Below are positions 1,213 to 57,200 of a DNA stretch of 64,000 nt, in pieces (the first letter of the stretch is position 1; each line of letters begins with the position of its first letter). The stretch lies in sequence record MT446421.1; one strand, written 5' to 3'. The stretch is from Escherichia virus TH55. Under the pieces are notes generated by a model that made no database searches, was not told the origin of the DNA, and saw only the letters and a program-made list of their open reading frames with translations. Made by a program: the position numbers and the translations under genes.

Positions 1213-3026
1213 TGGTGTTTAACCCTATGCATGATTTCTTTATTTTTGCCGAGATTAAATCCACGTTCGTTCGGATTTCCCAAATAACCGCAAGTTCTTC
1301 TTATTGTGTTCATCTTTTTAGGGTCAGTTTCTCCACAAATAGAACAAACAAATCCGTTTTCAGTAGGAGTCATTTCATGGGTACTTCCACACGTAAAACA
1401 TTTATCTACTGGCATATTAACACCAAAATAATCTAAATGTTGCGCGGCATAATCCCATACAGCCTCAAGACCTTTTAAGTTATTTTTCATATCAGGAAGT
1501 TCAACATAAGAAATGTGACCACCTGTCGCAATGAAATGATATGGGGCTTCGCGAGAAATCTTTTCAAACGGAGTAATATTTTCTTCTACTGAAACGTGGA
1601 AACTGTTAGTGTACCATCCTTTATCGGTAACATCTTTTACACTTCCATATTTTTCAGTATCAAGTTTACAGAAGCGATAACAAAGGTTTTCAGCAGGTGT
1701 AGAATACAAACTAAAAGCAAAACCGGTTCTTTCAGTCCACTGCTTAAGACGAGCATTCATTTTAGTTAAAATTTCTTGCCCAATATCACGACCGGCAAGA
1801 ATATTCAATTCGTGAATACCAATGTATCCCAAAGACACTGAACTTCTACCGTTTTTAAATAACTCAATTATATCATCATCAGGTTTAAGACGAACCCCGA
1901 ATGCACCTTCTTGGTAAAGAATAGGAGCAACAGTCGCTTTAACTCCTTTTAAAGAACTAATTCTACACATCAAAGCTTCAAAACACAAATCCATTCGCTC
2001 ATTGAACAATTCGATAAATTTCTGTTCATTGAACTGTGTTCCAATATAAGAATCTAACGCAATGCGAGGAAGATTCAGTGTTACAACACCAAGATTATTA
2101 CGTCCATCAAGAATTTCATTACCAGTCGAATCTTTCCATACGCCCAAGAAACTACGGCAACCCATTGGAGAAACAGGAATAGATGAACCAGTGATAGCTT
2201 TATTGTTCTTAGCTGAAATAATATCAGGATACATTCTTTTGCTTGCACACTCTAGAGCAAGCTGCTTAATATCATAGTTCGGGTCGTCTTTATAAAGATT
2301 AACACCTTCTTCAACGAACATAACAAGTTTAGGGAAAATAGGAGTTATCCCATCGCGACCAAGACCTTTGATACGATTTTTCAGAATTGCTTTCTGAATC
2401 ATTCGTTCAGTCCAGTCAGTTCCCGTGCCAAACGTAATTGTCACAAAAGGCGTTTGCCCATTTGAACTAAAGAGCGTATTTACTTCATATTCATAAGCTT
2501 GGAATGCATCGTATACGTCTTTTTCTGTTTTAGATTGGGCATAATTCAATGCATCAGTGATTTGCCATTTTTCTGCATCTTCAATATGTTTTGCGTATGT
2601 ACGTTTAACATAAGGAGAAAATACTTTGTCTACATTAGCAAAAGTCGTTCCGCCATATTGGTGAGAAGCAACCTGTGCAGTAATTTGTGCCATAATTGCA
2701 GTAGCAACACCGATTGATTTAGGAGTTTCAATCTGTGCATTACCAAGCTTAAATCCGTTCTCAAGCATTCCTTTTAAATCTACTAAACAGCAATTAGTAA
2801 ATGGAAGAGCAGGGGAATAATCAATATCATGGAAATGAATAATTCCACTTTCATGTGCTTTCATAATAAAAGACGCGACCATATTTTTGGCAATGTGTTT
2901 AGATACAATACCAGCCATAAGGTCCCGTTGAGTTGGAAAAACACGAGAATCTTTATTAGCATTCTCGTTTAAAAGGTCTTTATTAGTTTTATGAATCAAT
3001 CCTTCAATTTCGTTTTCAATTGTCAT
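1209..3026 (-). CDS. nrdD: anaerobic ribonucleoside-triphosphate reductase large subunit
   Basis: 605 aa; C-terminal glycyl-radical motif RTCGYLG and zinc ribbon CFTCG...CSICG; length equals T4 NrdD; ORF uninterrupted. Confidence 0.93.
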   Translation of the reverse strand: MTIENEIEGLIHKTNKDLLNENANKDSRVFPTQRDLMAGIVSKHIAKNMVASFIMKAHESGIIHFHDIDYSPALPFTNCCLVDLKGMLENGFKLGNAQIETPKSIGVATAIMAQITAQVASHQYGGTTFANVDKVFSPYVKRTYAKHIEDAEKWQITDALNYAQSKTEKDVYDAFQAYEYEVNTLFSSNGQTPFVTITFGTGTDWTERMIQKAILKNRIKGLGRDGITPIFPKLVMFVEEGVNLYKDDPNYDIKQLALECASKRMYPDIISAKNNKAITGSSIPVSPMGCRSFLGVWKDSTGNEILDGRNNLGVVTLNLPRIALDSYIGTQFNEQKFIELFNERMDLCFEALMCRISSLKGVKATVAPILYQEGAFGVRLKPDDDIIELFKNGRSSVSLGYIGIHELNILAGRDIGQEILTKMNARLKQWTERTGFAFSLYSTPAENLCYRFCKLDTEKYGSVKDVTDKGWYTNSFHVSVEENITPFEKISREAPYHFIATGGHISYVELPDMKNNLKGLEAVWDYAAQHLDYFGVNMPVDKCFTCGSTHEMTPTENGFVCSICGETDPKKMNTIRRTCGYLGNPNERGFNLGKNKEIMHRVKHQ

Positions 3027-3496
3027 TTTAAACTCTTTCTAAGCTGCTTCTTAAATGAAGCCATTAATTGTGTTTTGGTGTCAGATTCATTATAAGTCAT
3101 ACCATTCAAAAGCATTTCCCGAATCATTTCTTCTTTCCCCAGACGACCGAACTCTTTGGCTTTGTCTGTTACAAAATTGGGGTGAATATTGTTTTCGGTA
3201 TAATCAGATTTCAGATAGACAAGCAAACTCTCTAACCATTCCAGGTAGTCAACATCGCGACTTTTCAGACCCGAACGGCTGAACTTATGCTTCATTTGTC
3301 CTTCTGTCCCATTGCACAGATTGCATAGTAACCCGCGAACCTTACCAGCTTTTGGCCCGTTCAATTCGTGGTCATGGTCAAGATGGTTGGCCTGAACATC
3401 GGAGTCCAAATCACGGTGGCAAATTGGACACTTACCAGCTTGTGCATCATAAAGTTTTTGTTTTTCTTCTTTGTATAATTTGCCAGTCAACAACAT
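3023..3496 (-). CDS. 49: endonuclease VII (Holliday junction resolvase)
   Basis: 157 aa; near-identical to remembered T4 gp49 (MLLTGKLYKEEKQKLYDAQ...CNLCN...); zinc-binding CxxC/H-N-H core; adjacent to nrdD as in T4. Confidence 0.93.
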   Translation of the reverse strand: MLLTGKLYKEEKQKLYDAQAGKCPICHRDLDSDVQANHLDHDHELNGPKAGKVRGLLCNLCNGTEGQMKHKFSRSGLKSRDVDYLEWLESLLVYLKSDYTENNIHPNFVTDKAKEFGRLGKEEMIREMLLNGMTYNESDTKTQLMASFKKQLRKSLK

Positions 3497-3704
3497 AATA
3501 AACCCTTACCATTATTAGATAAGGGTATTTATTAAATCTTATAAAACGCGCGGTGTAACCGTTTAAATTGACGAATCATCTTTTTAGTAGGACGAGTATA
3601 CAATCCTACACAGGTGGCCATAAACTGGTCGGTAGGACTTCCTTTAATAAGAAGTTTCCAGACCTTGACACCATTTAACTTTTCGGTATAGACTAATGCA
3701 GTTT

Positions 3705-20764: not shown

Positions 20765-21256
20765 TTATTTGTATGCGTCAAAAGTTCCGGTGCGGAAAGT
20801 TTCAATAACTCGTTTAGCCCGGTTCGGAGTCTGGACTTTATACCATCTTGAGTCTGCCAGTTCCTTGGCAGCCGCTTCCCATGATTTAGCCTTCAGCAAT
20901 CGCATACCCTTAGGAAAACCCGCAACACCAGCAACACCCATCTGGAATACCATATTAATGAGTGCACAACGACGAACTTCATCAAGTACATCATAAACAG
21001 GTTTTAAGACAGGATGTCTCAAGATTCCGGCTTTAGCCTTTTCGACCGAACGGTTAAACAGTGTTTCGGCTTCGTGTTGGGTTATACGACCATTACAGAC
21101 GCGACCCATGAGCTTATCGAGCTCGGCGCGAGCAACATCTTTAGATGGGTTCTTAGTTATCAGTTGCCCGATGCCAATGGTCCAATAGCCTTCAGTATCT
21201 TTATACAAATCCAACTTACAACCTTCATCTATGCGTAACATTTCGAATATATTCAT
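20765..21256 (-). CDS. e: lysozyme (endolysin, T4 e)
   Basis: 163 aa; [12 protein letters not shown]...[13 protein letters not shown]...[12 protein letters not shown]...[19 protein letters not shown] matches T4 lysozyme. Confidence 0.95.
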
Positions 21257-21282
21257 AATACCCCCTTATATAGGGGTATTTA

Positions 21283-21741
21283 TTATCCGAAAATTTGAGT
21301 CATTACCTTGTACATCGATTTGCCCATCACATACTGCCATTGACTCGGTTTAATCAGAGCAAATGCATCGAACTCTGGAACCGAACTACCATCCGGGAAG
21401 GTATGATAGGCAGAGCATTTACTATGTCTAAACTGCTCATGCTCAACCGGAACCGTGTACAAAAACAGGTGAAGATTTTTGTTATCTGAATAACGGAACT
21501 CACCCAGGTCCTTTAAGAATGCCGGGTCGTATTGGGTAAACCCGGTTTCTTCTTCGGTTTCACGGATAGCCGCTTCAATCGGGGATTCACCAGCTTCAAC
21601 ATGGCCCTTAGGGATGTCCCATTTATGTGCAGGCATACCTGGTTTACGAGAACAAGTCACACGACCCATGAATAACTCTTTATCTTCAGTCATGAAAATA
21701 ATGCCAGCAGATAATTCTTTCACCTTGTTTTTCTTACTCAT
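21283..21741 (-). CDS. nudE: Nudix hydrolase
   Basis: From M12 about 152 aa; Nudix box GHVEAGESPIEAAIRETEEETG; position downstream of e as T4 nudE. Confidence 0.8.
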   Translation of the reverse strand: MSKKNKVKELSAGIIFMTEDKELFMGRVTCSRKPGMPAHKWDIPKGHVEAGESPIEAAIRETEEETGFTQYDPAFLKDLGEFRYSDNKNLHLFLYTVPVEHEQFRHSKCSAYHTFPDGSSVPEFDAFALIKPSQWQYVMGKSMYKVMTQIFG

Positions 21742-30575: not shown

Positions 30576-30583
30576 TATTTATA
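30576..30583 (-). promoter_or_regulatory. late promoter TATAAATA
   Basis: Exact late consensus on minus strand just upstream of CTS-like gene 30162-30545. Confidence 0.5.
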
Positions 30584-37911: not shown

Positions 37912-38596
37912 TTTTAAGTACCTTACAATTTTCACCATGCCAACGTTTATAGTTGCCTGGATTTGTTATTTTTCCACAGTGTTCACAGGTGTGACGGGGA
38001 GCATTTTTATTAAGCTCTGATAAACGTTTTCTGACATCATCAGTAATACCTTGCTTTATTTTCTCGCTATGATTTACCAAAACTCTTTCTTTATTTGCCT
38101 TGGATATTTTTGCTCGCCAATCATCTGTAAACACTCTTTCTGATAATTTCTTACAATGTTCTTCAGAGAACTTTTTACCCTTTGCTGCTTCTGACAACTT
38201 TTTGCAATGCTCTTCAGAGCGCGGGCCATATTTCTTACCTTTAAGAGCTTTTGAAATATTTTCACATGTTTGTTTTGAACGTTTACGTCCAGTGTGAAAC
38301 TTAATGGAAGTCTCAACAGCGCGGATGCGCACCCATTCAAATTGTTTGTTATTGTAATTGTTGGAACCCATTAGAATTTTCGCAGCATGTGCTAACGAGT
38401 GATTATCTGGATAAATTTTAACCAATAACAGGTGGGCGACAAAATGTTCAGGAGCGGTAAGCTCGACTAAATTTTCATCAGTATCTAATCCGCCCATACA
38501 TCTTGGAATAATGTGATGTTTCTCTTTGTAACCATCAATGGGTGCTCGATTTTTAGCTCGTTGGATTAAGTTATTGTAATGTTTTAGATAGTTCAT
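37889..38596 (-). CDS. free-standing HNH homing endonuclease with NUMOD3-like repeats
   Basis: 235 aa; HNH core HHIIPRCMGGLDTDENLVELTAPEHFVAH; two repeats SEEHCKKLSEAAKGKK; C-terminal CxxC; minus-strand TATAAATA at 38615-38622; inserted between 4 and 53. Confidence 0.75.
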   Translation of the reverse strand: MNYLKHYNNLIQRAKNRAPIDGYKEKHHIIPRCMGGLDTDENLVELTAPEHFVAHLLLVKIYPDNHSLAHAAKILMGSNNYNNKQFEWVRIRAVETSIKFHTGRKRSKQTCENISKALKGKKYGPRSEEHCKKLSEAAKGKKFSEEHCKKLSERVFTDDWRAKISKANKERVLVNHSEKIKQGITDDVRKRLSELNKNAPRHTCEHCGKITNPGNYKRWHGENCKVLKNGVLREV

Positions 38597-38614: not shown

Positions 38615-38622
38615 TATTTATA
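38615..38622 (-). promoter_or_regulatory. late promoter TATAAATA (HNH endonuclease gene)
   Basis: Minus-strand TATAAATA 19 nt upstream of HNH ORF start; overlaps the divergent plus-strand late promoter of gene 53. Confidence 0.5.
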
Positions 38623-38626
38623 AATA
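38619..38626 (+). promoter_or_regulatory. late promoter TATAAATA (gene 53)
   Basis: Exact late consensus 41 nt upstream of gene 53 ATG. Confidence 0.65.
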
Positions 38627-38666: not shown

Positions 38667-39269
38667 ATGCTTTTTTCATTTTTTAACCCAATTGATTATG
38701 ATGCTAAAACAATCAGAAAAAACTCGGCATCATTAACGAAAGAAGATGTCTTAAGCATCCCAATGACTGACATCTTCAGAAACTATCGTGCATATTTTGA
38801 TAAGGTCGCGGTTAATTATACACCGAAAACATATTACATCGCCGGAGCTCCGAGACCTGAAGAACTTGCATATCAGCTCTATGGTAATACTCAACTCTAT
38901 TGGGTTCTCCTTATGCTTAATAATATCTATGACCCGTATTATGGTTGGATATGTTCACAAGAATCATCATATCAGGCATCAATTCAACGCTATTCGAATA
39001 TAGGTGGTAATCAGGTTCTTTATCATGTAAATGAAGATGGTGAAAAATTCTGGAATCTTGTTTCTTATCCTGATAATCCATACACATGGTATGATAAAGG
39101 TGATAAGAACAAATTATACCCACAGTATGAAGGCCCATTAGCTGCAGTGGATATCTACGAAGATGCTATTCGCAAAAATGAATATAAACGAGAAATAAAG
39201 ATAATCGACCCTAATGATATCGAATCATTTATTTCGGCATTAATCCGCGAGATGGAGAAGGCGCTATGA
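38667..39269 (+). CDS. 53: baseplate wedge protein gp53
   Basis: 200 aa; first gene of plus-strand late cluster, late promoter 38619-38626; ATGA overlap with gene 5. Confidence 0.75.
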   Translation: MLFSFFNPIDYDAKTIRKNSASLTKEDVLSIPMTDIFRNYRAYFDKVAVNYTPKTYYIAGAPRPEELAYQLYGNTQLYWVLLMLNNIYDPYYGWICSQESSYQASIQRYSNIGGNQVLYHVNEDGEKFWNLVSYPDNPYTWYDKGDKNKLYPQYEGPLAAVDIYEDAIRKNEYKREIKIIDPNDIESFISALIREMEKAL

Positions 39270-55496: not shown

Positions 55497-56281
55497 TGGC
55501 TACTTATGACGCAAGATTATTCGCCCGGCTCGAAGACGGGACCGGGTATGACAATACCAATGCTACAGAGATATTGAACCCTTATGTAAACTTTATGCAT
55601 CATGAAAATACCCAGACTTTAGCCGATGCTATTGTTGCTGAAAGTATTCAGATGCGCGGAATGTCTCTTTATTATATCCCAAGGCAATTCGTTAAACCGG
55701 ATTTGTTATTTGGTGAAGACCTCCAGAGTAAATTTGATAAAGCATGGAAATTTGCTGGATATCTGGATACGTTCGATGCATATCAGGGTGATGGTTCTAT
55801 CTTTAGTAAATTCGGTATGACTGTGAACGATGAAATTACAATATCCATTAACCCTAATCTGTTTAAACACCAATGCAATGGAACTGAACCTATTGCCGGG
55901 GATTTGATTTATTTCCCTCTTGATAACAGCCTGTTCGAAATTACATGGGTGCAACCTTATGACCCATTCTATCAGGTAGGTCAAAATGCTATCCGTAAAA
56001 TCACCGCGAGCAAATACATTTACTCCGGAGAAGAGCTTAAACCCGAATTGCAACGAAATGAAGGTATTAATATTCCAGAATTCAGTGAGCTCGATTTACA
56101 ACCAATCCACAATATCGATGGTCTTACAGATATCAGCGATATCCCTTATGCTGAATCCAATGAGATTAACGCAGAAGCAGCTGAATATGTTAAACCATAT
56201 TTTGTGCAGAATGGTCGTGGACTTGAGGCTCCACCTAAGGCAAAACAGGATAGCTTTGACGATAGTTTCTTTGATGAATAA
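55496..56281 (+). CDS. 14: neck protein gp14
   Basis: 261 aa; ATGA coupling with 13. Confidence 0.85.
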
Positions 56282-56324
56282 ATACATTTATTAATGCGCC
56301 CGAACTGGGCGCCTGGAGGTTACT

Positions 56325-57196
56325 TTGTTTGGGCATTTTTATAATTCGTCTCTGCGTCGCTATATCGTTTTAATGGGCGATTTATTTTCCCATGTACAAG
56401 TGGCCAGAACCAGAGAAGACACTGGACTTAAATATATTAAGGTCCCTATTTCTTATGCTTCAAAAGAAAAATTCATGATGCAGCTTGGAAAATGGACCGC
56501 TATTCAGAATACACCGACTCCTGACATGTCACCACAAGAACGTGCTGCTCAGAAGGCTAAAATCGAGACCATATTGCCCCGTATGAACCTACATATGGTT
56601 GACTTGATGTATAATGGGCAATATAAAACGGCTCTCCAGAATCACACACAGGCGCGATTTGCTAATAACGACCCTCGCAAGCAGATATCTCAATATTCTC
56701 CTGTACCGGTCAAAATGATTTTCGAGCTTGGAATATATACAAGGCATCAAGATGATATGTTCCAGATTATCGAACAAATCATGCCTTACTTCCAGCCACA
56801 TTTTAATACAACCATCACTGAACTTTATACGAATGAAATTACGTTCGAACGTGATATAAGAATCGTATTGCAGTCCATAGCAATGGATGAGCAAATTGAA
56901 GGTGATGCAATGACTCGTCGTAGACTCGAATGGTCCATTATGTTCGAAGTTAACGGTTGGTTATATCCACCGGTCAAGGAAGTAGCCGGGGAAATCCGTA
57001 CTATCTATCTTGACTTCTTTGCAAATTCCAGAGAGCTTGCACCGGAGGGCAATTTCGAATCTGTTGACTCGGAAGCTGTTCCACGAGACGTCGACCAAGA
57101 AGACTGGCAAGGTGAATCTGTTCAAACATATTCGCAGGATATTCCTGTACCGGTTGACCCAGCACCGCCAGCCCCAAGAAAAAATAGGGTACCACT

Positions 57197-57200
<4 letters not shown>
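56325..57200 (+). CDS. 15: tail sheath stabiliser / tail terminator gp15
   Basis: 291 aa; ORF-track start is a TTG at 56325 preceded by GGAGG (56314-56318). Confidence 0.8.

Follow-up and report, generated by a model that had tools for sequence, protein, structure and literature searches.

The window, that is, the whole stretch of 64,000 nucleotides that was analysed, is 100% identical to Escherichia phage UPEC07 (Gaprivervirus, Tevenvirinae), a relative of T4. Crude ORF calling placed nearly all genes between 1 and 38.6 kb on the minus strand. Among these are gene e, whose product is 68% identical to T4 lysozyme over its full length, and the nudE gene located just upstream of it. The gap between the two genes comprises 26 nt (21257-21282) with the sequence TAAATACCCCTATATAAGGGGGTATT on the minus (coding) strand, and the whole junction on this strand reads TTC GGA TAA TAAATACCCCTATATAAGGGGGTATT ATG AAT. 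A gap of 26 bp between nudE and e had already been reported in a sequence-only reading of this DNA, and the coordinates bear it out. The features of the junction are collected in Table 1.

Table 1. Position of the genes and predicted elements at the nudE-e junction of the window.
Feature	Position	Strand	Basis and remarks
nudE (NUDIX hydrolase)	21283..21741	-	ORF; Pfam NUDIX, E 2e-16; NudE in the UPEC07 annotation; located upstream on the same strand; its transcripts would extend into e
nudE stop codon TAA	21285-21283	-	Last two bases coincide with octamer positions -13 and -12
Late-promoter-like octamer AATAAATA, -13 to -6	21284-21277	-	7/8 match to the gp55 consensus TATAAATA
Hairpin 5' arm AAUACCCCU (predicted anti-Shine-Dalgarno strand)	21280-21272	-	Folds and structure counts
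Loop AUAUAA	21266..21271	-	Fold; predicted late +1 is the A at 21271
Hairpin 3' arm GGGGGUAUU	21257..21265	-	Contains the Shine-Dalgarno sequence GGGGGU at 21265-21260; reaches position -1 relative to the AUG
Gene e (T4-type lysozyme, 163 aa)	20765..21256	-	Pfam Phage_lysozyme; AUG at 21256-21254
Outer helix 5' strand UUUCGGAUA (tentative)	21284..21292	-	66-nt fold; last nudE codons
Outer helix 3' strand UAUUCGAAA (tentative)	21241..21249	-	66-nt fold; e codons 3-6

A predicted hairpin and a late-promoter-like octamer at the start of e

The leader of e is predicted to fold into a hairpin of 9 bp, AAUACCCCU/GGGGGUAUU, with one terminal U.G pair, a free energy of -13.1 kcal/mol and a share of 57% of the ensemble. 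The Shine-Dalgarno (SD) sequence GGGGGU is fully paired in the predicted fold and the stem reaches the base preceding the AUG. The sequence-only reading had assigned the SD of e to the 3' arm of a hairpin, which was confirmed by its position within GGGGGUAUU. The hairpin itself was also found, whereas the helix of 5-6 bp proposed there proved too short, as the fold gives 9 bp. The promoter had been described as abutting the hairpin; instead, the predicted stem starts inside the octamer and the helix overlaps its last four bases, which are shared with the 5' arm. As to the promoter element given in the same reading, TAATAAATA, the octamer AATAAATA is present in it, but the leading TAA is the stop codon of nudE, the last two bases of which are at the same time the first two bases of the octamer.

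Considered alone, the 33-nt element is characterized by z = -1.9, with 8 of 200 shuffled sequences folding equally well, and a z-score of -3.1 was obtained when the flanks were included. The support for the hairpin beyond chance from this single sequence is thus modest. Among 108 crude start-site regions of the window, the e leader ranks third in stability and the fourth place is occupied by gene 49.

In a fold of 66 nt, an additional outer helix of 9 bp enclosing the AUG was predicted in both the MFE and the centroid structure (-18.4 kcal/mol in comparison with -13.1 kcal/mol). Its strands are formed by the last nudE codons and by the early codons of e. This sequence is invariant within the genus, so that covariation is absent from the predicted pairing. 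By inspection, an equivalent outer pairing was not seen in the T4 or Dhakavirus sequences. The outer helix is accordingly regarded as a tentative element of the Gaprivervirus leader.

The sequence-only reading called the promoter word non-canonical, and rightly so, as AATAAATA matches TATAAATA at seven of eight positions. The variant is a known one, being found at T4 gene 49 and represented by nine promoters with A at -13 in a list of 50 T4 late promoters, 32 of which are perfect (PMC2988020). A(-13) is the commonest variant among the T4 late promoters (PMC2988020), and the T at -13 is poorly conserved across T4-like phages (PMC1524935). How strong the variant late promoters are in vivo relative to one another has not been measured even in T4 (PMC2988020).

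The window contains 14 copies of the canonical TATAAATA against 5.7 expected, mostly located 10-50 nt upstream of gene starts. This enrichment ahead of gene starts indicates that T4-type late promoters are in use in the phage. According to the annotation of UPEC07, the phage encodes the RNA polymerase sigma factor Gp55 (141076-141633), roughly 2.5 kb outside the window. No canonical octamer was found near e, the nearest coding-strand copy being more than 9 kb upstream, at 30576. The variant AATAAATA occurs six times in the window against 8.3 expected, that is, without enrichment, and three of the six copies sit 20-40 nt upstream of gene starts.

The late-promoter octamer spans positions -13 to -6 relative to the transcription start (PMC1524935), so the +1 of the putative e promoter is predicted at about 21271, the first base of the loop, six bases past the octamer. 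The predicted late transcript from 21271, beginning AUAUAAGGGGGUAUUAUG, lacks the 5' arm and is unstructured (0 kcal/mol). When regions from -60 to +30 were folded, a value of -19.7 kcal/mol was obtained for the early read-through RNA and -2.7 kcal/mol for the predicted late RNA; the values for the T4 counterpart were -17.7 and -3.5 kcal/mol, respectively. T4 late promoters are usually A+T-rich just downstream of the octamer (PMC2988020). The bases following the octamer here, CCCCT, are not A+T-rich and have more G+C than those of T4 e (CCTTC) or T4 gene 49 (CCCTT); A+T-richness at this place is a tendency of the family and not a requirement. No second promoter is present in the loop of the window hairpin, where the word TATATAAG differs from the consensus at three positions, and most e leaders of other genera are likewise single-promoter ones.

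Conservation of the e leader among T4-like phages

Leaders of e were gathered from 32 T4-like IMG/VR contigs and eight GenBank records (T4, UPEC07 and six others), five of these eight adding named genera for which no taxonomy line had been available before, and the pooled set comprised 22 distinct leaders. At least nine genera were covered (Tequatro-, Mosig-, Dhaka-, Gapriver-, Karam-, Kanagawa-, Jiaoda-, Moon- and Gelderlandvirus), seven of the nine genus names being taken from the taxonomy lines of the records. All 22 distinct leaders contain ATAAATAC followed by a hairpin covering the SD, with folding energies from -8.7 to -16.3 kcal/mol, and the distance between the motif and the AUG is kept at 20-27 nt. 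In an alignment of 20 leaders, ATAAATAC (the heptamer and the C following it) and the SD core GG.G form invariant columns; the nucleotide preceding the heptamer, the loop and both stem ends (inner and outer) are variable. The counterpart of the 3' arm in other genera is GGAGGUAUU. In Jiaodavirus and Gelderlandvirus, the gene upstream of e is not nudE but a small hypothetical ORF. The layout is kept despite the different upstream gene, which indicates that the cassette travels with e.

The stability of the leaders was compared with that of other gene starts at 20 distinct related loci. The e leaders had a mean folding energy of -12.5 kcal/mol (range -14.1 to -9.2 kcal/mol) versus -3.6 +/- 3.1 kcal/mol for 123 other same-strand ORF starts from the same loci, with a Mann-Whitney p value of 4e-12, which is inflated by the relatedness of the loci. 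In this comparative context, the evidence for the e hairpin beyond chance is strong.

The stems fall into two registers, a T4 register (AAUACC.../...GGUAUU), to which the window belongs, and an inward-shifted one (CUCCUAUC/GAUAGGAG). In the T4 register, 90.7% of the alignment cells pair in comparison with 42-58% after a shift of the 3' partner by 1-3 columns. Two compensatory pairs were detected in this group. A single compensatory change affects the core of the stem, a U-A to C-G replacement at columns 13-30 in the lineage of the window, by which CCUCC/GGAGG becomes CCCC/GGGGG. The inward-shifted register showed 95.5% pairing and no covariation, its leaders being nearly invariant. The support from covariation is therefore thin in the aligned sequences, as the leaders are closely related. 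In an IMG/VR scan with the pattern ATAAATACC-N(8-22)-GGTATTATGAA, no uncompensated intermediates were found among the e leaders; the pattern is self-complementary and the scan is hence biased.

A covariance model (R1) was built from nine T4-register leaders, including that of the window. The e leader was the top match of R1 in the window (42.5 bits, E 7e-6), the window being among the training sequences. At E <= 0.01, the inward-shifted leaders were not recovered with this model, so the two groups of leaders were analysed separately. A search of Rfam yielded no relevant family for the e leader, and a literature search on the late promoters of VR7 returned nothing.

The base at -13, the only one at which the octamer of the window departs from the consensus, is A in 11, G in six and T in five of the 22 distinct leaders. 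In 12 of them the stop codon of the upstream gene overlaps the octamer in such a way that -13 falls on base two or three of the stop, and in all 12 this base is either A (TAA) or G (TGA). T at -13 is restricted in the set to leaders whose stop codon is 3 nt or more further upstream. In the window, T is excluded because -13 is the second base of the nudE stop UAA. The non-canonical first base of the promoter thus has a simple reason, namely the tight packing of the genes and the overlap with the upstream stop codon.

Translational control of e in T4 and its probable counterpart in the window

In T4, the translation of gene e is controlled through the use of different promoters (McPheeters et al. 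1986, as reviewed in PMC3014915). The early read-through RNA forms an inhibitory helix, and the transcripts from two late promoters lack its 5' strand (Uzan & Miller, PMC3014915). Related T4-type phages have been predicted to share this arrangement (Uzan & Miller 2010, PMC3014915). The leader of T4 e, TATAAATACCTTCTATAAATACTTAGGAGGTATTATG, can be matched base by base to that of the window, and ATAAATACC and GGTATTATG are identical in the two. In both phages the gene downstream is orthologous, nudE lies upstream on the same strand, the 5' arm starts within the final four bases of the octamer, and the 3' arm is the SD and ends at the AUG. The hairpins are also of similar stability (-13.3 kcal/mol in T4 and -13.1 kcal/mol in the window). 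T4 differs in possessing two canonical TATAAATA octamers, the first ahead of the stem and the second within the loop, whereas a single octamer with A at -13 is present in the window. The loop comprises 6 nt in the fold of the window and 8 nt in that of T4, and the SD is GGGGG instead of the GGAGG of T4, with a matching U-to-C change in the 5' arm of the window. The nudE stop overlaps the octamer in the window and is located 6 nt upstream of it in T4, and the possible outer helix is found in the window and not in T4.

On the strength of these sequence comparisons, the element very probably represents the orthologous Gaprivervirus version of the translational switch known from T4 gene e. The sequence-only reading had seen in it a mirror of the T4 lysozyme arrangement, a view which is supported by the orthology, the conserved structure and the placement of the promoter. 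We infer early read-through, promoter activity, the transcription start site and differential translation, the first of these from the arrangement of the genes and the precedent of T4. As regards the context for read-through, nudE is located on the same strand 26 nt upstream of e and no terminator-like site was found on the coding strand between them. Matches to a sigma-70-like early promoter upstream were no more frequent than in shuffled sequences, and by this search an early promoter was neither located nor excluded.

According to the proposed mechanism, the early transcripts of nudE and of the genes upstream of nudE would run on into e. In this early RNA, the hairpin AAUACCCCU/GGGGGUAUU would pair the SD up to the base preceding the AUG, 30S subunits would be excluded and no lysozyme would be made prematurely. 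After the onset of DNA replication, RNA polymerase with gp55 would recognise AATAAATA, the 3' half of which doubles as part of the 5' arm of the predicted hairpin. Late initiation about six bases downstream of the octamer, in the loop at about 21271, would then yield an mRNA starting with AUAUAAGGGGGUAUUAUG, which lacks the anti-SD strand and, being unstructured, would be translated. In such a scheme, the promoter that made the RNA decides about its translation.

As a mere 2 nt separate the nudE stop codon from the 5' arm, ribosomes terminating at nudE should open the hairpin transiently. Early silencing, and with it the repression of e, may thus be leaky. A further step in this direction would be that, in the maximally compacted cassette of the Gapriverviruses, the stop codon inside the promoter and the outer helix together form a coupling gate instead of a plain off switch, with the nudE ribosomes opening both helices and allowing a low level of early lysozyme. 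Early lysozyme would then depend on the translation of nudE, and late transcripts would bypass the gate. In the same reading, the replacement of GGAG by GGGG in the SD would also abolish a RegB-type cleavage motif. This reading is considered unlikely.

Several other explanations of the element were weighed against the translational switch. The stem is G+C-rich and directly follows a stop codon, as might be expected of an intrinsic terminator or a 3'-end stabiliser of the nudE RNA on the coding strand, with the early RNA ending before e, and the homologous hairpin of Mosigvirus KAW3E185 carries the ARNOLD label 'putative transcriptional terminator'. Such a role would not be fully exclusive of the switch. 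However, the consensus scan gave no flag on the coding strand, the tail after the stem, AUGAAUAU, has no U tract, and the early transcripts of T4 are reported to extend into e and to form the structure (PMC3014915). Termination would also give no reason why the SD invariably makes up the 3' arm and why this arm invariably stops at the AUG. A coding-strand terminator is thus very unlikely and was rejected for the missing U tract. The scan did flag the plus strand, at 21262-21276, where a hairpin CCCCTTATATAGGGG is followed by TATTTATTAT and the complement of ATAAATA forms a T-rich tail in every homologue. A terminator acting in this direction would nevertheless have nothing evident to terminate, and was rejected on that ground: the genes called between 1 and 38.6 kb lie almost all on the minus strand, and every plus-strand copy of TATAAATA, AATAAATA or GATAAATA is located at or beyond 38619, so that no predicted late promoter aims at the site. 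The plus-strand stem has only 5 bp (-7.5 kcal/mol, z = -1.0), and its function as a terminator, which would not account for the constant position relative to the SD and AUG of e, is extremely improbable.

The hairpin could also repress e as proposed while AATAAATA itself is inactive, late lysozyme being made in another way, for example after removal of the 5' arm by RNA processing, or through melting of the hairpin by ribosomes that terminate at nudE, which would couple e translation to nudE. In favour of this, the octamer matches the consensus at seven of eight positions and has CCCC behind it, AATAAATA shows no enrichment in the window, and the nudE stop 2 nt from the 5' arm would suit the coupled melting. 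Against an inactive promoter, ATAAATAC is invariant in the 20 aligned leaders in which the preceding base, the loop and parts of the stem vary, and its spacing to the AUG is held to 20-27 nt. The same variant, moreover, is carried by T4 gene 49, and half of the six window copies are placed 20-40 nt upstream of gene starts. These data leave an inactive octamer as a quite improbable solution. The modest statistics of the single sequence, together with the lack of octamer enrichment, might even suggest that a promoter-like word and a small hairpin met by chance in an A+T-rich gap. Their position is conserved in at least nine genera, with a compensatory change, and the stability stands out against other gene starts; a coincidence is hardly credible and is effectively refuted by these comparative data.

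The mechanism of the translational switch is already well understood from T4, and the locus described here is an orthologous further case with small variations. Those of its own are the single promoter, the overlap with the stop codon, and the GGGGG ribosome-binding site with its compensating change. No new biological question is opened by them. The T4-style block on premature lysis would be kept, with structure-preserving changes, in at least nine genera of T4-like phages. For the engineering of therapeutic T4-like coliphages, this means that the cassette should stay intact in edits around e.

Related cassettes and other sites

Inhibitory structures at translation start sites are known in T4 for e, soc, I-TevI and gene 49 (PMC3014915). 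The late promoters of I-TevI (located in the td intron) and soc are placed so that only late RNAs lack the 5' strand of the helix sequestering the ribosome-binding site (PMC3014915), as in the case of e, but the genes and sequences are different. The leader of T4 gene 49 (endonuclease VII), AATAAATACCCTTATCTATTTAAGGTAAGGGTTTATTATG, contains the same octamer AATAAATA as the e leader of the window, with a C-rich 5' arm directly behind it and a hairpin over the ribosome-binding site. It differs from the e leader in the gene controlled, in a longer stem (ACCCUUAUC/GGUAAGGGU with AAUAAA/UUUAUU) and in a weaker SD. It is related to the e leader in logic and is not its orthologue.

The window has its own gene 49 (endonuclease VII by Pfam; ORF 3023..3496, minus strand) with a similar cassette, UUAAUAAAUACCCUUAUCUAAUAAUGGUAAGGGUUUAUUAUG, at 3494-3535 on the minus strand. 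The leader is the same as that of T4 gene 49 except for the loop, and carries AATAAATA followed by the hairpin. Its fold has -14.1 kcal/mol (z = -3.2), and it was the second-best match of R1 in the window (23 bits, E 0.06). The stop codon TAA of the upstream ORF overlaps the octamer at -13/-12.

In the genome of Escherichia phage vB_EcoM_KAW3E185 (MK373782; locus L074, 517-540), the hairpin of the e leader is annotated as a 'putative transcriptional terminator' by ARNOLD. It is more likely a translational-control hairpin, and the label may reflect a recurring annotation error in T4-like genomes. Annotation pipelines should not label these hairpins as terminators, as was done in this deposited genome.

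A variation in the promoter word was observed in locus L030 (identical to Cronobacter phage S13), where at about 1455-1500 the e leader forms a hairpin of 12-14 bp, CCUCUUCUAAA...UUUAGAGGAGG, over the SD. Its 5' arm holds CTAAATA, a form of late promoter reported for Aeromonas phage Aeh1 (PMC1524935), which corresponds to the same logic in a different promoter dialect. Three further loci (L053, L054 and L056), located on viral contigs of 17-35 kb, encode distant lysozymes (46-50% identity) and had no close relative in the phage collection. Hairpins of the CCUCAUAAAUAU...AUAUUUAAUGAGG type are found in them about 40-50 nt upstream of the lysozyme start. The anti-SD CCUC is located upstream and not downstream of the word CATAAATA; the geometry is thus another one, in which a late transcript would still lack the anti-SD.

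Two other sites in the window contain late-promoter octamers in palindromes. At 38615-38626, two TATAAATA octamers on opposite strands overlap by 4 nt in the palindrome TATTTATAAATA. The palindrome is located at the junction of a minus-strand block of genes, which ends at 38596, and a plus-strand block starting at 38667, and by its sequence looks like a pair of divergent late promoters. At 56277-56325 on the plus strand, AATAAATA is located inside the short palindrome AATAAATACATTTATT; the G+C-rich hairpin GCGCCCGAACTGGGCGC comes next, and GGAGG after it. The octamer lies 40 nt upstream of the ORF 56325..57200 in a block of late genes, and the site may, judging from its sequence, be a junction of a terminator and a promoter.
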